DNA of 64,000 nt from Escherichia coli (GCF_003334405.1 NZ_QOWM01000006.1), one strand, 5' to 3'; counted from the stretch's first letter, positions 4,790 to 20,814 are shown. A program made the numbers and translations. Notes: a model not told the origin generated them from the letters alone.

Positions 4790-7324
4790 ATGGCCGGGAA
4801 TGACCGCGAGCCAATTGGACGCAAAGGGAAACCGACGCGTCCGGTCAAACAAAAGGTAAGCCGTCGTCGTTACGAAGATGACGATGATTACGACGATTAT
4901 GATGACTATGAGGATGAAGAACCGATGCCGCGCAAAGGTAAGGGCAAAGGCAAAGGGCGTAAGCCTCGTGGCAAACGCGGCTGGCTATGGCTACTGCTAA
5001 AACTGGCTATCGTTTTTGCCGTGCTGATCGCCATTTACGGCGTTTATCTCGATCAAAAAATTCGTAGCCGTATTGATGGCAAGGTCTGGCAACTGCCTGC
5101 GGCAGTTTATGGCCGAATGGTCAATCTTGAGCCAGACATGACCATCAGCAAGAACGAGATGGTGAAGCTGCTGGAGGCGACCCAGTATCGTCAGGTGTCG
5201 AAAATGACCCGTCCTGGCGAATTTACCGTGCAGGCCAACAGCATTGAGATGATTCGCCGTCCGTTTGATTTCCCGGACAGTAAAGAAGGACAGGTGCGCG
5301 CGCGTCTGACCTTTGATGGCGATCATCTGGCGACGATCGTCAATATGGAGAACAACCGTCAGTTCGGTTTCTTCCGTCTTGATCCGCGTCTGATCACCAT
5401 GATCTCTTCGCCAAACGGTGAGCAGCGTCTGTTTGTGCCGCGCAGTGGTTTCCCGGATTTGCTGGTGGATACTTTGCTGGCGACAGAAGACCGTCATTTT
5501 TACGAGCATGATGGAATCAGTCTCTACTCAATCGGACGTGCGGTGCTGGCAAACCTGACCGCCGGACGCACGGTACAGGGTGCGAGTACGCTGACGCAAC
5601 AGCTGGTGAAAAACCTGTTCCTCTCCAGCGAGCGTTCTTACTGGCGTAAAGCGAACGAAGCTTACATGGCGCTGATCATGGACGCGCGTTACAGCAAAGA
5701 CCGTATTCTTGAGCTGTATATGAACGAGGTGTATCTCGGTCAGAGCGGCGACAACGAAATCCGCGGCTTCCCGCTGGCAAGCTTGTATTACTTTGGTCGC
5801 CCGGTAGAAGAGCTAAGCCTCGACCAGCAGGCGCTGTTAGTCGGTATGGTGAAAGGGGCGTCCATCTACAACCCGTGGCGTAACCCAAAACTGGCGCTGG
5901 AGCGACGTAATCTGGTGCTGCGTCTGCTGCAACAGCAACAGATTATTGATCAAGAACTCTATGACATGTTGAGTGCCCGTCCGCTGGGGGTTCAGCCGCG
6001 CGGTGGGGTGATCTCTCCTCAGCCAGCCTTTATGCAACTGGTGCGTCAGGAGCTGCAGGCAAAACTGGGCGATAAGGTAAAAGATCTCTCCGGCGTGAAG
6101 ATCTTCACTACCTTTGACTCGGTGGCCCAGGACGCGGCAGAAAAAGCCGCCGTGGAAGGCATTCCGGCACTGAAGAAACAGCGTAAGTTGAGCGATCTTG
6201 AAACTGCGATTGTGGTCGTCGACCGCTTTAGTGGTGAAGTTCGTGCGATGGTCGGAGGTTCTGAGCCGCAGTTTGCGGGCTACAACCGTGCGATGCAGGC
6301 GCGTCGTTCGATTGGTTCCCTTGCAAAACCAGCGACTTATCTGACGGCCTTAAGCCAGCCGAAAATCTATCGTCTGAATACGTGGATTGCGGATGCGCCA
6401 ATTGCGCTGCGTCAGCCGAATGGCCAGGTCTGGTCACCGCAGAATGATGACCGTCGTTATAGCGAAAGCGGCAGAGTGATGCTGGTGGATGCGTTGACCC
6501 GTTCGATGAACGTGCCGACGGTAAATCTGGGGATGGCGCTGGGGCTGCCTGCGGTTACGGAGACCTGGATTAAACTGGGCGTACCGAAAGATCAGTTGCA
6601 TCCGGTTCCGGCAATGCTGCTGGGGGCGTTGAACTTAACGCCAATCGAAGTGGCGCAGGCATTCCAGACCATCGCCAGCGGTGGTAACCGTGCACCGCTT
6701 TCTGCGCTGCGTTCGGTAATCGCGGAAGATGGCAAAGTGCTGTATCAGAGCTTCCCGCAGGCGGAACGCGCTGTTCCGGCGCAGGCGGCGTATCTGACAC
6801 TATGGACCATGCAGCAGGTGGTACAACGCGGTACGGGTCGTCAGCTTGGGGCGAAATACCCGAACCTGCATCTGGCAGGGAAAACAGGGACTACCAACAA
6901 TAACGTAGATACCTGGTTTGCGGGCATTGACGGCAGCACGGTGACCATCACCTGGGTCGGCCGTGATAACAACCAGCCGACCAAACTGTATGGTGCCAGC
7001 GGGGCAATGTCGATTTATCAGCGTTATCTGGCTAACCAGACGCCAACGCCGCTGAATCTTGTTCCGCCAGAAGATATTGCAGATATGGGCGTGGACTACG
7101 ACGGCAACTTTGTTTGCAGCGGTGGCATGCGTATCTTGCCGGTCTGGACCAGCGATCCGCAATCGCTGTGCCAGCAGAGCGAGATGCAGCAGCAGCCGTC
7201 AGGCAATCCGTTTGATCAGTCTTCTCAGCCGCAGCAACAGCCGCAACAGCAACCTGCTCAGCAAGAGCAGAAAGACAGCGACGGTGTAGCCGGTTGGATC
7301 AAGGATATGTTTGGTAGTAATTAA
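4790..7324 (+). CDS. mrcB: Penicillin-binding protein 1B (bifunctional glycosyltransferase/transpeptidase)
   Basis: ORF 4775..7324 trimmed to ATG 4790 ([14 protein letters not shown]..., 844 aa); GT51 motif [12 protein letters not shown]; SxxK motif in SIGSLAKP; single TM helix after basic/acidic N-terminus. Confidence 0.94.
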
Positions 7325-15148: not shown

Positions 15149-16588
<1,440 letters not shown>

Positions 16589-16669
16589 ACGAAATACCAG
16601 GGTATTAGATAATGGCGATTATTATTGGGTTAGAATTTGCCCAATTGCCGATGTCGTTTGGAGCAAAAT

Positions 16670-17014
16670 ATGAGTGATGACGTAGCACTGCCGCTGGAGT
16701 TTACCGACGCAGCAGCCAACAAAGTTAAAAGCCTGATCGCTGACGAAGATAACCCGAATCTGAAATTACGCGTGTATATCACCGGTGGCGGTTGCAGCGG
16801 CTTCCAGTATGGTTTCACCTTTGATGATCAGGTGAACGAAGGCGATATGACCATCGAAAAACAGGGCGTTGGCCTGGTGGTTGATCCGATGAGCCTGCAA
16901 TATCTGGTCGGCGGTTCCGTTGATTATACCGAAGGTCTGGAAGGTTCTCGTTTCATCGTGACCAACCCGAACGCGAAAAGCACCTGCGGTTGCGGTTCTT
17001 CCTTTAGTATCTAA
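16670..17014 (+). CDS. erpA: Iron-sulfur cluster insertion protein ErpA (A-type carrier)
   Basis: ORF 16637..17014 trimmed to ATG 16670 ([11 protein letters not shown]..., 114 aa); C-terminal CGCGSSF cysteine motif. Confidence 0.93.
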
Positions 17015-17024
17015 TCTGTTGTTC

Positions 17025-17051
17025 ATGTGCCGGATAAACTATCCGGCACAT
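17025..17051. terminator. Bidirectional hairpin between convergent erpA and yadS (ATGTGCCGGAT-aaact-ATCCGGCACAT)
   Basis: Perfect 11-bp inverted repeat read from sequence. Confidence 0.5.
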
Positions 17052-17060
17052 CTTCTCTCT

Positions 17061-17684
17061 TCAACGCCCATTCTCATCCAGCGCAAACGTCGGTAGCTTA
17101 AGATGCCAACGAATAGCCGCCAGCCGAATCAATAGCGTCACGACCATGCCCATCATACTGGCTGTTTCCAGTGGTACGGAAAATGTGTAATAAGCCGTAG
17201 CGTGGACAATACCGCCGATAATACAGGCAGTTGCGTAGATTTCTGTACGTAAAATCATGGGGATTTCGCGGGCCAGAACATCACGAATGATCCCGCCGCC
17301 AACGCCAGTAATGACGCCCATACAAACCGCGATTAACGGACCGGCTTCCGCATTAAAGGCTTTATTCACGCCAATGCCGACAAACACCGCCAGACCAACG
17401 GCGTCCAGCACCGGCAACATCCATTTTGGTAAGCGTCTTGGCTGGCGCACCAGCACGATGGTCAGCATGCTGGTGACCATTGCAACGACCAGATCGGTGG
17501 GATCTTTCACCCAAAATACCGGGCCGTGATCCAGCGCCATGTCGCGAATTGTCCCGCCGCCTACTGCGGTTACCACGCCCAGTACCAGAACACCAAAAGG
17601 GTCCATACGCAATTTTCCGGCTAACAAAACGCCGGAGATGGCAAATACCGCTGTGCCGACTATATCCAGCCAATAGACGAGCAT
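17061..17684 (-). CDS. yadS: UPF0126 family inner membrane protein YadS
   Basis: 207-aa hydrophobic ORF; internal duplication with repeated G-V-x-T-[AG]-V-G-G-G-x-I-R-D motif (GVVTAVGGGTIRD and GVITGVGGGIIRD). Confidence 0.9.
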   Translation of the reverse strand: MLVYWLDIVGTAVFAISGVLLAGKLRMDPFGVLVLGVVTAVGGGTIRDMALDHGPVFWVKDPTDLVVAMVTSMLTIVLVRQPRRLPKWMLPVLDAVGLAVFVGIGVNKAFNAEAGPLIAVCMGVITGVGGGIIRDVLAREIPMILRTEIYATACIIGGIVHATAYYTFSVPLETASMMGMVVTLLIRLAAIRWHLKLPTFALDENGR

Positions 17685-17721
17685 TGTTCAATCCCCACTG
17701 AGCACCTGAAAAGGTCAGGCG

Positions 17722-18522
17722 CTAATCTACCTGTGAAAGCGCATTACAGAGCTGTTGTGCAGCGAGGATAATACGTGGGCTTGCACGTTCAAACCAGTCA
17801 CTCGTGAGAGGAATAACGGGAATTTTGAGCTGTTCACCCCAGTATTGTTTGATTTTAGGAATTTGGTCCGGTCCGCCTGTAATGACAATCGCCTGTGGCG
17901 AGCGTGCTAACACCTGTTCGCGGCTAACTTGCGGCCAGGGAACCCGGCTGTCTTTAAAGATGTTTTCTCCGCCACAAACTTCGAGTACCTGGTTCTGAAT
18001 CGACTCTTTTCCACTGGTAAATGGCGGATTAATGCCGAATTGCAGAAAAACACGTTTTTTAGGTTTATCAGCATATTGCGCTTTCAATTGCGCGTACTGA
18101 TCCAGCAGGGATTGCGCGGCTTGTTCGGCCTTGTCTGGTTGCGGACTCCAGGGGGCCAGTTGACGTAACGCATTGGCAATTTGTTCAATGCTTGTCGCAT
18201 CGACCCACATCACTTTTATTCCCAGCGAAGCCAGCTGGTCAACCTGCCGCTCGGCATTACCTCCACGCCAGGCAATCACCAGATCGGGTTTCAGCGCGAC
18301 AATGCGTTCCAGATTCATCCCCTGCCAGGTGGAAACCTGCTCAATCTTTTGCGCTTGTGGAGGATAGTCGGAATAGCTGCTGACCCCAACCGGCGTGATC
18401 CCGGCGGCAAAGGCAAGTTCAGTGTTGGCGGGAGAAAGCGTGATGACGCGCGGCGCGGCGTTGAGCCACAGTGGCGCAAGAAAAGACAGGGCGACCAGCG
18501 CCCTGAACAGTGACTTAGCCAT
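17722..18522 (-). CDS. btuF: Vitamin B12 periplasmic binding protein BtuF
   Basis: ORF 17722..18549 trimmed to ATG 18522 ([22 protein letters not shown]..., 266 aa); signal peptide; start overlaps mtn 3' end by 8 nt. Confidence 0.92.
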
Positions 18523-19213
18523 GTGCAAGTTTCTGCACCAGTGACTCAACCATCAGGCTGGACTGTTTAGCGGCAACAGCCAGGAACTCATCGAAGCTAA
18601 GATGAGACTGTTGATCGGCCACGTCGGAGATGGCGCGTACGACAACAAACGGGACGTTGAAATTGTGGCAGACATGGGCGATTGCCGTCGCTTCCATCTC
18701 TACAGCAATGGCCTGTGGGAAGTTGTGGCGGATTTTCGCCAGACCAACAGAACCGTTGATGAAAGCGTCGCCGCTAACAATCAGGCCACGTACAGCGTTA
18801 AGATTCAGTTCGGCAATGCAGGCCTCAGCGGCAGCGATCAGTTTATCGTCAGCTTTAAAGCCTGCCGGACAGCCTGGTAACTGACCGTATTCATAACCAA
18901 ATGCCGTGACATCCGCGTCGTGATAACGTGCTTCGTCCGAGACAACGATATCGCCCACTTTCAACGTTGGTGCCAGGCCACCGGCAGAACCGGTGTTAAT
19001 AATCACATCTGGCTTGCAGTGTTCCAACAGCAAAGTGGCACCCAGCGCCGCAGCGACTTTACCGATGCCCGATTTCAGAAGCGCAACCTCGGTTCCATTC
19101 AGTTGGCCGGTATAGATTTCGCAACCGCCGAGACTGATAGTTTGACGGTTTTCGATTTTGTCACGCAGCAGCGTAACTTCTTCTTCCATTGCACCAATGA
19201 TGCCGATTTTCAT
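18515..19213 (-). CDS. mtn: 5'-methylthioadenosine/S-adenosylhomocysteine nucleosidase
   Basis: 232-aa [27 protein letters not shown]...; matches Mtn (Pfs). Confidence 0.97.
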
Positions 19214-19296
19214 AGATTTACTCGCGATAAGCCCGATTTGAAGGCATAGTTTACCATGCGCTTACGGGGAAGCGTATTTCTCACGCGGGAGAGGAC

Positions 19297-20814
19297 ATGG
19301 CACAGATTGATTTCCGAAAAAAAATAAACTGGCATCGTCGTTACCGTTCACCGCAGGGCGTTAAAACCGAACATGAGATCCTGCGGATCTTCGAGAGCGA
19401 TCGCGGGCGTATCATCAACTCTCCGGCAATTCGTCGTCTGCAACAAAAGACCCAAGTTTTTCCACTGGAGCGCAATGCCGCCGTGCGCACGCGTCTTACC
19501 CACTCGATGGAAGTCCAGCAGGTGGGGCGCTACATCGCCAAAGAAATTTTAAGCCGTCTGAAAGAGCTTAAATTACTGGAAGCATACGGCCTGGATGAAC
19601 TGACCGGTCCCTTTGAAAGCATTGTTGAGATGTCATGCCTGATGCACGATATCGGCAATCCGCCGTTTGGTCATTTTGGCGAAGCGGCGATAAATGACTG
19701 GTTTCGCCAACGTTTGCACCCGGAAGATGCCGAAAGCCAGCCTCTGACTGACGATCGCTGCAGCGTGGCGGCACTACGTTTACGGGACGGGGAAGAACCG
19801 CTTAACGAGCTGCGGCGCAAGATTCGTCAGGACTTATGTCATTTTGAGGGGAATGCACAAGGCATTCGCCTGGTGCATACATTGATGCGGATGAATCTCA
19901 CCTGGGCACAGGTTGGCGGTATTTTAAAATATACCCGTCCGGCGTGGTGGCGTGGCGAAACGCCTGAGACACATCACTATTTAATGAAAAAGCCGGGTTA
20001 TTATCTTTCTGAAGAAGCCTATATTGCCCGGTTGCGTAAAGAACTTAATTTGGCGCTTTACAGTCGTTTTCCATTAACGTGGATTATGGAAGCTGCCGAC
20101 GACATCTCCTATTGTGTGGCAGACCTTGAAGATGCGGTAGAGAAAAGAATATTTACCGTTGAGCAGCTTTATCATCATTTGCACGAAGCGTGGGGCCAGC
20201 ATGAGAAAGGTTCGCTCTTTTCGCTGGTGGTTGAAAATGCCTGGGAAAAATCACGCTCAAATAGTTTAAGCCGCAGTACGGAAGATCAGTTTTTTATGTA
20301 TTTACGGGTAAACACCCTAAATAAACTGGTACCCTACGCGGCACAACGATTTATTGATAATCTGCCTGCGATTTTCGCCGGAACGTTTAATCATGCATTA
20401 TTGGAAGATGCCAGCGAATGCAGCGATCTTCTTAAGCTATATAAAAATGTCGCTGTAAAACATGTGTTTAGCCATCCAGATGTCGAGCAGCTTGAATTGC
20501 AGGGCTATCGGGTCATTAGCGGATTATTAGAGATTTATCGTCCTTTATTAAGCCTGTCGTTATCAGACTTTACTGAACTGGTAGAAAAAGAACGGGTGAA
20601 ACGTTTCCCTATTGAATCGCGCTTATTCCACAAACTCTCGACGCGCCATCGGCTGGCCTATGTCGAGGCTGTCAGTAAATTACCGTCAGATTCTCCTGAG
20701 TTTCCGCTATGGGAATATTATTACCGTTGCCGCCTGCTGCAGGATTATATCAGCGGTATGACCGACCTCTATGCGTGGGATGAATACCGACGTCTGATGG
20801 CCGTAGAACAATAA
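19297..20814 (+). CDS. dgt: Deoxyguanosinetriphosphate triphosphohydrolase
   Basis: 505-aa ORF; HD-domain motifs (HSMEV..., [10 protein letters not shown]). Confidence 0.97.

Follow-up and report, generated by a model that had tools for sequence, protein, structure and literature searches.

Genes and features of the mtn-btuF-yadS locus

We analysed a 64,000-nucleotide stretch of Escherichia coli DNA, referred to here as the window. Between positions 17061 and 19213, the minus strand carries three genes; mtn, btuF and yadS (Table 1). Mtn scores 455.2 bits against NCBIfam model TIGR01704 (cut-off 73.8) and BtuF 510 bits against NF002894 (cut-off 234). The RefSeq features beneath the match are named btuF, mtnN and, for yadS, 'TRIC cation channel family protein'. 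This region shows 100% identity to MG1655; of 5426 complete E. coli genomes, 5424 contain it. Two sets of candidate features were discarded. A btuF start at TTG 18549 is a mechanical extension of the open reading frame; the annotated 266-residue protein opens at ATG 18522. Similarly, plus-strand open reading frames in the interval mirror the three well-supported genes on the other strand, with no RefSeq feature beneath.

Table 1. Features of the mtn-btuF-yadS locus (positions counted from the first letter of the window)
Feature	Position	Strand	Basis or remark
mtn (pfs/mtnN), 5'-methylthioadenosine/S-adenosylhomocysteine nucleosidase, 232 aa, first gene of unit	18515-19213	-	ORF; TIGR01704; RefSeq
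btuF, periplasmic vitamin B12-binding protein of the BtuCD ABC importer, 266 aa	17722-18522	-	ORF, ATG at 18522; NF002894
yadS (EcTRIC), 207 aa, predicted seven-helix inner-membrane channel protein, prokaryotic TRIC / UPF0126 family	17061-17684	-	PDB match; AF2; Foldseek; PMC5477506
mtn stop / btuF start overlap, 8 nt, ATGGCTAA	18515-18522	-	read from sequence
btuF-yadS spacer, 37 nt	17685-17721	-	GGGGA Shine-Dalgarno-like run 17692-17696, 8 nt 5' of yadS ATG; ACA abuts AUG
YadS repeat 1, residues 4-78, TM1-TM3, N-terminal triple-helix bundle	17451-17675	-	PF03458 1.5e-24; helices 2-24, 29-51, 63-79 in model
YadS repeat 2, residues 92-163, TM4-TM6, C-terminal triple-helix bundle	17196-17411	-	PF03458 1.4e-21; helices 89-111, 116-137, 151-166
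Motif copy 1, GVVTAVGGGTIRD, residues 36-48, predicted glycine kink of TM2	17541-17579	-	sequence; aligns to SaTRIC GGG48-50
Motif copy 2, GVITGVGGGIIRD, residues 123-135, predicted glycine kink of TM5 and R134-D135 gating pair	17280-17318	-	aligns to SaTRIC GGG134-136, R139-D140
TM7, residues 172-193, extra helix outside the two repeats	17106-17171	-	AF2 model; 3+3+1 architecture in PMC5477506
mtn-dgt divergent intergenic region, inferred promoter site for mtn-btuF-yadS	19214-19296	.	gene arrangement
Terminator-like hairpin CAGGGCG-CUGGU-CGCCCUG then UCUUUUCUU, in btuF signal-peptide codons just 3' of mtn stop	18487-18505	-	dG = -12.1 kcal/mol, z = -3.0
12-bp perfect hairpin between convergent erpA and yadS	17025-17051	.	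dG = -18.9 (+) / -20.2 (-) kcal/mol, z = -7.8 / -7.0

The three genes form a probable operon

A prior sequence-only reading named mtn and btuF, placed an 8-nucleotide overlap between them, put yadS 37 bp after btuF on the same strand and took the whole for an operon. Both gene identities agree with the NCBIfam matches, and the overlap (ATGGCTAA) and spacer are as described. The overlap is widely conserved; 19 of 21 Enterobacteriaceae junctions examined have the form [A/G]TGG[C/G/T]TAA. One exception (L013) reads ATGCGTAA and the other (L020) has no start codon within the overlap. The operon reading is also supported. It is borne out by the single strand, the overlap, the short spacer, the lack of a consensus promoter inside and the conserved gene order. 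Furthermore, yadS-btuF-mtn is listed as one transcription unit (PMC11731830). We are confident, if not certain, that mtn-btuF-yadS is a known housekeeping operon of E. coli K-12 and that YadS is a TRIC-family channel, EcTRIC. Transcription would most likely start 5' of mtn and run through all three genes. The ATGGCTAA overlap would couple translation of mtn and btuF, and yadS would be translated from its own Shine-Dalgarno site, 37 nucleotides 3' of btuF. The linkage would be a sign of co-transcription, not of shared biochemical function.

Simple consensus scanning found no strong sigma-70 match in the mtn-dgt intergenic region (19214-19296). On the gene strand inside mtn-btuF-yadS, the consensus scan, which weak promoters could escape, found no consensus-like sigma-70 promoter; the independent yadS promoter that might have spoken against an operon was likewise not seen. 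In a Reg-Seq preprint, yadS is merely listed among the targets.

Potential RNA structures were also considered. Hairpins akin to that at 18487-18505, with other stem sequences, occur in most Enterobacteriaceae. Compared with synonymous-codon resampling, the btuF hairpins have a mean z of -0.92, with 4 of 21 below -1.64; they exceed the expectation from amino acid sequence only weakly. When the sequences after the mtn stop were aligned with MAFFT, RNAalifold returned no pairs, and the stem register shifts between species. The hairpin at 18487-18505 is a possible, putative partial attenuator, and could uncouple expression levels within the unit. In the btuF-yadS spacer, a small hairpin is not significant (z = -1.6) and has no U-tract. 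Hence, we find no terminator between btuF and yadS. The hairpin at 17025-17051 is terminator-like for erpA, its U-rich tail being on the plus strand, and bounds the yadS unit at its 3' end. Riboswitches were sought with Rfam. Positions 16500-19500 gave one spurious lncRNA match and nothing else (E <= 1), and 12 related loci, scanned at the gathering threshold, gave only tRNAs and CsrB; no cobalamin, glycine or SAM type was found. Hence, riboswitches do not help in choosing a cargo for YadS.

YadS is an internally duplicated protein of the TRIC family

The motif G-V-x-T-x-V-G-G-G-x-I-R-D had been noted twice in YadS, and both copies are present (residues 36-48 and 123-135). No further copy of GV.T.VGGG.IRD occurs in the six-frame translation of the whole 64-kb window. 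Smith-Waterman alignment of residues 1-86 with 87-175 gave a score of 89, with 21 of 44 positions identical (z = 11.0, 0/2000 shuffles). With both motifs masked, a TM1/TM4 match, L-D-x-V-G-x-A-V-F, still reached z = 3.5 (14/2000 shuffles). Profile-profile comparison of the halves, drawn from a 51-sequence family alignment, covered 77 columns (residues 2-79 and 89-165) with 97.9% probability and E = 3.9e-13. Pfam recognises a PF03458 domain in each half. The self-alignment proposed earlier as a check therefore shows that the duplication extends past the motif. Chance or low complexity was ruled out as a source of the repeated motif, which is confined to yadS in the window and lies within similarity spanning all three helices of each half. 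We conclude that TM1-3 and TM4-6 arose by an ancient duplication within the protein. With an odd number of helices apiece, the repeats lie inverted relative to each other in the membrane.

Full-length similarity connects YadS to every solved prokaryotic TRIC (E = 2.8e-54 to 2.1e-28). The best phmmer match in the PDB was 5wuf, CpTRIC (2.8e-54, residues 3-204), followed by 5h36 (9e-40), 5wuc (2.5e-31) and 5h35 (3.4e-29). The closest characterised relatives are 50-56% identical. An AF2 model of YadS (pLDDT 95.9) has seven long helices, and Foldseek aligned it to 5wuf with TM-scores of 0.88/0.93 and an rmsd of 1.8 A. Across the prokaryotic TRICs, TM-scores were 0.85-0.89 and rmsd 1.4-2.1 A. When the sequence was threaded N-out with the model helices, 13 of 16 Lys/Arg residues fell on the predicted cytoplasmic side. 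Consistent with this, the passage of Su et al. (PMC5477506) that cites Daley et al. places the YadS C-terminus inside, by GFP tag. Su et al., in 2017, named YadS EcTRIC, described two inverted three-helix repeats with GGG kinks, and used YadS as the seed sequence of their structural project (PMC5477506). Hence, the earlier description of a pseudo-symmetric channel was apt; the PDB match, AF2 model and Foldseek all point to a prokaryotic TRIC with two inverted three-helix repeats. The topology check it called for likewise gave seven helices, N-out and C-in. By sequence and predicted fold, YadS is a member of the prokaryotic TRIC channel family (TCDB 1.A.62).

Conservation falls on positions important in SaTRIC. 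The GGG triplets of YadS are residues 42-44 and 129-131. Among 51 family members, G42-G44, R47, G130, G131, D94, R134, D135 and Y150 are invariant, and F14 and F101 are at least 90% conserved. D94, R134, D135 and Y150 align to SaTRIC D99, R139, D140 and Y155, and F14 and F101 to F20 and F106. By their roles in SaTRIC, the first four belong to the gating network of the C-terminal bundle, with the Asp in TM4, the Arg-Asp pair in TM5 and the Tyr in TM6, and the two phenylalanines are pore residues of TM1 and TM4. YadS would be a seven-helix inner-membrane protein with its N-terminus outside and its C-terminus inside. In both repeats, the motif would supply the glycine kink of the central helix, TM2 or TM5, and after it an Arg-Asp gating pair. 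Judged by homology, three protomers would make up a trimer. Each would have an hourglass pore between its repeats, shut by a D94-R134-D135-Y150 hydrogen-bond network. On the same basis, YadS would be a gated pore that lets small hydrophilic solutes through passively.

Gene neighbourhood across gammaproteobacteria

We scanned genomes with a 13-sequence alignment and analysed the best 80 of at least 598 matches. In 67 of these 80 gammaproteobacterial loci, mtn lies 5' of yadS on the same strand. All 31 Enterobacterales species among the 80 keep the order mtn-btuF-yadS, which was confirmed independently for Budvicia, with a median btuF-yadS gap of 14 nucleotides. The genes between mtn and yadS vary and include cbiB-like, btuF, DUF2721 and rhodanese genes. 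Spacing varies too. Within the same best 80, the btuF-yadS gap is 75-125 nucleotides in most Vibrionaceae and 215-277 nucleotides in Hafnia and Edwardsiella. Shewanella yadS overlaps the preceding gene by 1-8 nucleotides, and mtn and yadS overlap by 1 nucleotide in Vibrio breoganii. In these best 80 matches, the dgt flank is retained in 0 of 49 loci outside Enterobacterales, and erpA and clcA are still 3-5 kb downstream in 6 Vibrionaceae. In three Aeromonas species, yadS has moved next to flagellin genes. Six neighbourhoods of more distant family members (46-57% identity) contained flagellin, histidine kinase, DoxX, acyl-CoA dehydrogenase and similar genes. No theme of mtn, B12 or glycine cleavage recurred among these six; two of the contigs were too short to be useful. 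The linkage would descend from an ancestral gammaproteobacterial run, mtn - cbiB-like - btuF - yadS.

Shared function or shared ancestry

Why the genes stay together can be explained in opposing ways. One is that a TRIC-fold pore, Mtn and B12 genes make up an activated-methyl-cycle module, so that mtn and yadS stay co-oriented across at least four orders. For example, YadS might bring in glycine to supply one-carbon units for B12-dependent methionine synthesis. Equally, it might provide an outlet for a small by-product of cleavage of SAH, MTA or 5'-deoxyadenosine by the nucleosidase. The chain is coherent; glycine yields C1 units for the B12-dependent MetH, and thence SAM and SAH, the substrate of Mtn, in an established pathway. 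The 67 species with co-oriented mtn and yadS include Enterobacterales, Vibrionaceae, Shewanella, Colwelliaceae and some Aeromonadales. This co-orientation outlives loss or replacement of every gene between, including btuF and the cbiB-like gene, and the intervening genes are often cobalamin-related (CobD/CbiB family, BtuF). That dgt is never kept outside Enterobacterales among the best 80 points the same way. However, the V. campbellii yadS orthologue does not respond to B12 (log2FC 0.2, p = 0.92), and neither the operon nor the 12 related loci has a cobalamin, SAM or glycine riboswitch. Family members outside the yadS orthologue group sit in unrelated contexts, as does yadS in the three Aeromonas species. 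Moreover, two of the five bacteria with a glycine phenotype are Pseudomonas, a genus not known to have Mtn. Since erpA and clcA remain downstream in 6 Vibrionaceae, part of the linkage is plain inherited synteny. We regard a methyl-cycle module as a long shot.

The opposite explanation is that mtn, btuF and yadS are neighbours by descent only. Here, yadS would be expressed mainly from its own promoter, or be largely insulated from mtn by the hairpin at 18487-18505, and there would be no regulatory coupling. The terminator-like hairpin with its U-tract, directly after the mtn stop, suits this explanation and recurs in related species. Similarly, the wider btuF-yadS gaps of Vibrionaceae, Hafnia and Edwardsiella leave room for promoters, and a Shewanella study predicted a sigma-70 promoter just 5' of yadS. 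Against this, the gaps in E. coli, in Enterobacterales generally and in Shewanella are short or absent, and the consensus scan found no promoter on the gene strand. The stability of the hairpin hardly exceeds that predicted from the signal-peptide codons alone. Finally, as cited in PMC11837498, Salmonella with a polar pfs insertion no longer takes up B12, which argues for read-through at least into btuF. Descent without coupling is improbable, and we favour the operon reading.

The cargo of YadS

The substrate of YadS had been described as not evident from sequence. This view is outdated; homology points to a K+-permeable TRIC channel, and the family is also labelled a glycine transporter from mutant fitness. 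Homologues have been shown to pass K+ and other monovalent cations, and for the syntenic Shewanella orthologue genetics implicates glycine as the cargo. For the cargo of physiological relevance in E. coli, we tentatively propose glycine, at somewhat under an even chance. K+ or another monovalent cation is possible but must be called doubtful, and some other cargo is unlikely.

If YadS were strictly a channel for K+ or monovalent cations, the glycine phenotype of its orthologues would be indirect, for example through charge or ammonium balance in glycine catabolism. Direct electrophysiology of purified SaTRIC, with gating and selectivity mutants, favours such a channel. In bilayers, conductance is 159 pS with a preference of K+ > Na+ > Rb+, and D99A reverses selectivity. 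An E. coli strain deficient in K+ uptake is rescued by RsTRIC and by SsTRIC, and with RsTRIC K+ currents were recorded from patch-clamped spheroplasts (PMC5143425). The residues concerned are conserved in YadS, and no glycine riboswitch was found in the operon or in 12 related loci. Conversely, UPF0126 mutants, including Shewanella SO1319, have a specific glycine-utilisation defect that recurs in five bacteria from three genera; an ionic side effect should touch other substrates too. The glycine-transporter assignment is itself an inference from fitness data, not a transport assay (bioRxiv 072470). Furthermore, in the pore the structure authors saw no site for K+, Rb+ or Cs+, and they wrote that hardly anything is known of the physiological role. 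The K+ data were obtained with overexpression or in bilayers. In the complementation experiments, the E. coli strain used is a K+ auxotroph, which implies that native levels of YadS and YicG would not supply K+. We consider a strict cation channel possible, but would not put it at evens.

The operon, the TRIC identity and the inverted repeat of YadS are already known (RefSeq; papers of 2016-2017), and a 2025 paper describes the wider Vibrio cluster, in which the gene is wrongly labelled yeiH. The labels K+ channel and glycine transporter are incompatible, and both are attached to one family. The crystallised CpTRIC, the Shewanella gene with a glycine phenotype and E. coli YadS are syntenic orthologues, each ending an mtn-led gene run. 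In some databases, the name 'yeiH' masks this orthology. Because CpTRIC and SO1319 are both in mtn-led clusters, the two literatures would, if a methyl-cycle module were real, concern one orthologue group. E. coli is a convenient place to settle TRIC cargo.

Comparison with known systems

YadS resembles aquaporins and FocA formate channels in general design. These have a six-helix inverted repeat, a pore in each protomer and a homo-oligomeric assembly (Su et al., PMC5477506). This shows that small solutes, neutral or zwitterionic, can cross a scaffold of this kind. However, the second helix of the repeat is a broken half-helix in aquaporins and FocA, and a kinked full helix in TRIC (PMC5477506). 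Neither family was among the significant Foldseek matches of the YadS model, and we detected no sequence or close structural relationship. The eukaryotic TRIC-A and TRIC-B, K+ counter-ion channels of the sarco/endoplasmic reticulum, are closer. Their protomer is also a seven-helix inverted repeat, and they share K+ permeability with TRIC homologues. C. elegans and vertebrate TRICs match the YadS model with a TM-score of about 0.6 at only 13-20% identity. In contrast, PIP2 binding and a location in internal membranes set the eukaryotic TRICs apart (PMC5477506).

As in YadS, members of PF03458 (UPF0126, now 'Gly_transporter') and COG2860 have paired domains in a membrane protein of about 200 residues. 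The glycine-utilisation phenotype was measured for PF03458 members of species other than E. coli. SO1319 of Shewanella oneidensis is annotated yadS, with a DUF2721 gene upstream and an NTF2-like gene downstream. The sampled Shewanella loci have exactly this arrangement, 3' of mtn and a cbiB-like gene, and encode proteins 53-59% identical to YadS. A further parallel is the pfs - cbiB/cobD - btuF - 'yeiH' operon described in Vibrionales in 2025 (PMC11837498), which is the same run in order and strand. The Vibrionales 'YeiH' is the YadS orthologue; it belongs to PF03458/COG2860 and its printed sequence carries both motifs. The authors of that study do not describe the fourth gene as encoding a TRIC channel. 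We recovered pfs - cbiB/cobD - btuF - yadS in 19 of 22 Vibrionaceae loci among the best 80 of at least 598 matches. Unlike the Vibrionales operon, E. coli and other core Enterobacterales have no cbiB-like gene. According to PMC11837498, only Vibrionales and some Alteromonadales show the four-gene arrangement. In our sample, Plesiomonas, Oceanisphaera and Aeromonas schubertii have the full form as well, and reduced forms occur in Enterobacterales, Shewanella and Colwelliaceae.

The nearest known systems are the prokaryotic TRICs of solved structure; CpTRIC (5wuf), RsTRIC (5h36), SaTRIC (5wuc/d/e) and SsTRIC (5h35, 5wtr). All four are homotrimers (PMC5477506, PMC5143425). YadS has the same predicted seven-helix fold, arranged 3+3+1 with GGG kinks in TM2 and TM5, and has the C-terminal gating network and pore phenylalanines in common with them. 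Briefly, some residues differ from those of SaTRIC. The SaTRIC site for cations at the three-fold axis, N144, is R139 in YadS, and L148 is M143. In the N-terminal bundle, YadS has D7-R47-D48 where SaTRIC has N13-S53-N54. Given D7-R47-D48, YadS is more symmetric than SaTRIC, and these residues suggest that it may have a lock at both ends. Hence, from R139 and D7-R47-D48, gating may differ between the two proteins. The gene for CpTRIC also lies in the same mtn-led cluster (L080).

The mtn-btuF-yadS unit

Across the 2.5 kb around the unit, the sequence shares 100% identity with E. coli K-12 MG1655, and the region was found in 5424 of 5426 complete E. coli genomes (coverage at least 80%). RefSeq labels the genes erpA, yadS ('TRIC cation channel family protein'), btuF, mtnN and dgt. 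Mtn and BtuF score well above the cut-offs of their NCBIfam equivalog models (Mtn: TIGR01704, 455 bits, cut-off 73.8; BtuF: NF002894, 510 bits, cut-off 234). The sole NCBIfam match to YadS is NF007874, 'hypothetical protein' (438 bits; cut-off 326). As the sequence-only reading described, mtn and btuF overlap by 8 nt, with the mtn stop and btuF start both within ATGGCTAA, and the btuF-yadS spacer is 37 nt. This spacer contains GGGGA, 8 nt 5' of the yadS ATG. TTG starts for btuF at 18549 (17722-18549) and erpA at 16637 (16637-17014) were rejected as mechanical ORF-caller extensions; the conserved proteins begin at ATG 18522 and ATG 16670, respectively.

Features of the mtn-btuF-yadS region
Feature	Position	Strand	Details
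mtn	18515-19213	minus	232 aa; ORF list and sequence
btuF	17722-18522	minus	266 aa counted from the ATG at 18522 (MAKSLF...)
yadS	17061-17684	minus	207 aa; ORF list and sequence
Terminator-like hairpin	18487-18505	minus	In btuF signal-peptide codons, directly past the mtn stop
ACA triplet	17685-17687	minus	Abuts the yadS AUG on its 5' side
Perfect 12-bp hairpin	17025-17051		Between convergent erpA and yadS

YadS is a duplicated protein with a TRIC fold

The motif G-V-x-T-x-V-G-G-G-x-I-R-D occurs twice in YadS, at residues 36-48 and 123-135, with no further match in six frames of the 64-kb window. Self-alignment of residues 1-86 and 87-175 scored 89, with 21 of 44 positions identical (z = 11.0); none of 2000 shuffles reached this score. 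When the motifs were masked the halves still aligned (z = 3.5) via a second common element, L-D-x-V-G-x-A-V-F, in TM1 and TM4. A profile comparison, built on a 51-sequence family alignment, matched the halves over 77 columns and all three helices (probability 97.9%, E = 3.9e-13). Pfam places two PF03458 domains in YadS. What had been observed from the sequence for mtn-btuF-yadS is confirmed in full.

YadS is similar, over its full length, to every solved prokaryotic TRIC: CpTRIC (5wuf, E = 2.8e-54), RsTRIC (5h36, 9e-40), SaTRIC (5wuc, 2.5e-31) and SsTRIC (5h35 and 5wtr, about 1e-28). An AlphaFold2 model, with the family alignment as input, has seven long helices (pLDDT 95.9, pTM 0.90). Using Foldseek, the model superposed on CpTRIC with a TM-score of 0.88/0.93 and an rmsd of 1.8 Å. 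The top nine matches were prokaryotic TRICs, followed by eukaryotic TRICs with TM-scores of about 0.6. According to Su et al. (PMC5477506), who name YadS EcTRIC, its membrane orientation was fixed by GFP-tag topology. With the model helices threaded N-terminus outside, 13 of 16 Lys/Arg residues are predicted to be cytoplasmic, in agreement with the published C-in topology. Given this N-out/C-in threading and three helices per repeat, the two repeats must be inverted. The duplicated motif is the glycine kink described by Su et al. plus the Arg-Asp that follows it. Hence, with its prokaryotic TRIC similarity and two-repeat fold, YadS was correctly interpreted as a pseudo-symmetric small transporter or channel.

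We mapped YadS to SaTRIC by pairwise alignment and scored conservation in 51 diverse family members. The network locking the cytoplasmic pore end of SaTRIC (D99/R139/D140/Y155) corresponds to YadS D94/R134/D135/Y150. Likewise, pore phenylalanines F20 and F106 equate to F14 and F101, and GGG48-50 and GGG134-136 to G42-44 and G129-131. Each of these positions is either invariant or conserved in 90% or more of the members. In contrast, YadS has R139 in place of N144 at the three-fold-axis cation site, and M143 in place of L148. In the N-terminal bundle, D7-R47-D48 take the place of N13-S53-N54 of SaTRIC. This last replacement makes YadS more symmetric than archaeal SaTRIC, and YadS may be lockable at both ends. 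By homology, YadS would be a trimer, each protomer having its own hourglass pore between two bundles, gated by the Asp-Arg-Asp-Tyr network.

mtn is the most persistent partner of yadS

We examined the best 80 loci, from at least 598 matches in species-representative genomes, for E. coli neighbour genes and the intervening genes found there. All were from Gammaproteobacteria (47-100% identity to YadS). In core Enterobacterales, mtn-btuF-yadS with divergent dgt was kept in 31 of 31 and convergent erpA in 29 of 31; the median btuF-yadS gap was 14 nt. Outside Enterobacterales, dgt was never kept within the 80 loci, and erpA and clcA lay 3-5 kb downstream in six Vibrionaceae only. The order mtn - CobD/CbiB-family gene - btuF - yadS was found in Plesiomonas, 19 of 22 Vibrionaceae, Oceanisphaera, a gammaproteobacterial MAG (L066) and Aeromonas schubertii, the last with an extra rhodanese gene. 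The CobD/CbiB-family gene matches NCBIfam NF006476 (544 bits) and Pfam PF03186 (1.2e-32). The order in Aliivibrio and Colwellia is mtn - cbiB-like - yadS; in Thalassotalea a rhodanese gene lies between the last two of these. In nine Shewanella species it is mtn - cbiB-like - DUF2721 - yadS - NTF2-like, with a DUF2721/yadS overlap of 1-8 nt. In two Vibrio species (L054 and V. breoganii L055) the cbiB-like gene and btuF are both lost and mtn abuts yadS; the V. breoganii genes (L055:5294-6609) overlap by 1 nt, with mtn at 5294-5995 and yadS from 5995.

Overall, 67 of the best 80 loci have mtn upstream of yadS and co-oriented with it. Flanks were too short to judge in three of the remaining 13, and ten truly lacked mtn (three Aeromonas, Aliagarivorans, Bowmanella, Psychromonas, Bisgaardia, Paraglaciecola, Endozoicomonas and Alkalimonas). 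Hence, mtn rather than btuF is the most persistent yadS partner. The mtn-yadS run outlasted loss or replacement of every intervening gene, and in the two Vibrio species it outlasts the B12 genes.

The cbiB-like gene lies between mtn and btuF or yadS in Vibrionaceae, Plesiomonas, Shewanella, Colwelliaceae and some Aeromonadales, and is absent from core Enterobacterales. It encodes a membrane protein of about 320 aa (L036:4114-5064, L059:4570-5556 and L080:4875-5837, in related loci). The protein matches NF006476 but scores under the threshold of TIGR00380, the model for true CbiB; it is a divergent CbiB relative with a resemblance to AmpE as well. In Shewanella, the gene for the DUF2721 membrane protein (L056-L072, e.g. 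L059:5615-6615; Pfam 2.3e-35) runs into the start of yadS. In S. oneidensis, formate tolerance arises from point mutations in SO_1320, its DUF2721 gene (bioRxiv 2024.06.28.601276). In three Aeromonas species (L062, L064, L067) the yadS orthologue lies outside the mtn cluster; A. schubertii keeps the ancestral cluster. A published Aeromonas study (PMC2724415) puts yadS beside flaA, a polar flagellin gene. Flagellin genes also lie beside the YadS homologue of an Aeromonas relative (L001).

Transcription of the operon

No consensus sigma-70 site was found on the gene strand (16900-19400), and no riboswitch of any kind was detectable at the mtn-btuF-yadS region. There was no terminator in the btuF-yadS spacer, only a small hairpin (z = -1.6) without a U-tract. 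PMC11731830 gives 'yadS btuF mtn' as a single transcription unit. A pfs (mtn) insertion in Salmonella abolishes B12 uptake, according to earlier work as relayed by PMC11837498, implying read-through into btuF.

The hairpin between erpA and yadS has a GTGCCGGATAAACTATCCGGCAC core and is stable on both strands (z about -7). Its U-rich tail is confined to the erpA side; for erpA the hairpin is thus clearly a terminator, and for yadS it marks, at most, a 3' end by structure alone. The hairpin past the mtn stop reads CAGGGCG-CUGGU-CGCCCUG, then UCUUUUCUU (U-tract), with dG = -12.1 kcal/mol and z = -3.0. A hairpin recurs at the equivalent site in most Enterobacteriaceae, although the stem sequences differ. 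We resampled synonymous codons in 21 species, holding each btuF signal peptide fixed. The excess in stability was weak (mean z = -0.92; below 0 in 18/21 species and below -1.64 in 4/21). RNAalifold, applied to a codon-driven alignment of this hairpin, gave no consensus structure. The hairpin may be a partial attenuator setting mtn above btuF-yadS or a by-product of the Arg-Ala-Leu-Val-Ala-Leu codons.

The ACA triplet abutting the yadS AUG is in the context GAACAAUG. The MazF-regulon paper (PMC5001579) places yadS among MazF-processed transcripts; together these are compatible with ACA cleavage giving a leaderless yadS mRNA.

Cargo and the meaning of linkage

Purified SaTRIC has a conductance of 159 pS and prefers K+ > Na+ > Rb+ > Mg2+ ~ Ca2+; gating mutants alter its behaviour. 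An E. coli strain deficient in K+ uptake is rescued by either RsTRIC or SsTRIC, and giant spheroplasts with RsTRIC show K+ currents (PMC5143425). Authors of the TRIC structures described a pore without a K+, Rb+ or Cs+ site and the prokaryotic physiological role as almost unknown. Price et al. (bioRxiv 072470) reported UPF0126 (PF03458) mutants of five bacteria specifically defective in glycine utilisation (PGA1_c00920, SO1319, Sama_2463, Psest_1636 and AO353_13110). Their proposal of a glycine transporter gave the Pfam family its present name, 'Gly_transporter'. The CpTRIC gene of Colwellia psychrerythraea (L080) is a syntenic YadS orthologue. So is Shewanella SO1319, one of the glycine-phenotype genes; its published neighbours, SO_1320 (DUF2721) and SO_1318 (NTF2-like), match our Shewanella loci exactly. 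Hence, the conflicting K+ channel and glycine transporter labels fall on one orthologue group. On balance, glycine as the physiological cargo in E. coli would come close to an even chance, K+ or another monovalent cation would be a serious possibility, and anything else seems unlikely.

Glycine cleavage yields one-carbon units, which B12-dependent MetH uses for methionine; SAM-dependent methylation then produces SAH for recycling by Mtn. The B12 cofactor of this chain would come from BtuF and the CbiB-like protein. That mtn, the B12 genes and yadS form a functional module around it is coherent with established pathway knowledge, but we consider it improbable. There is no common riboswitch in the E. 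coli region and 12 related loci, and two of the five glycine-phenotype bacteria are Pseudomonas, which are not known to have Mtn. Family members beyond the orthologue group occupy unrelated gene contexts, and Aeromonas yadS has apparently moved to a flagellin-gene neighbourhood. Furthermore, the Vibrio orthologue, called 'YeiH', had no B12 response in the transcriptome of PMC11837498 (log2FC 0.2, p = 0.92).

Relation to the published cluster

Both the observation and the interpretation in the sequence-only reading are correct, and the operon and YadS identity are already in databases and literature. What value the result has rests on the question of the physiological role of bacterial TRICs and on the tidy experimental handle of the E. 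coli operon. IMG/JGI calls YadS orthologues (COG2860, PF03458) 'uncharacterized membrane protein YeiH', a name that belongs to another E. coli protein family; this mislabel was carried into the operon figure of a 2025 paper (PMC11837498). That paper describes the Vibrionales run pfs - cbiB/cobD - btuF - 'yeiH' and confines it to Vibrionales and some Alteromonadales. The supplementary 'YeiH' of that paper is COG2860/PF03458 with both motifs, and is therefore a YadS orthologue under a misleading label. Our distribution and TRIC identification are an incremental refinement of this published cluster rather than a discovery. The range of the full four-gene form is widened to Plesiomonas and Aeromonadales, reduced forms are traced to Enterobacterales, Shewanella and Colwelliaceae, and the fourth gene of the Vibrio cluster is identified as a TRIC channel.
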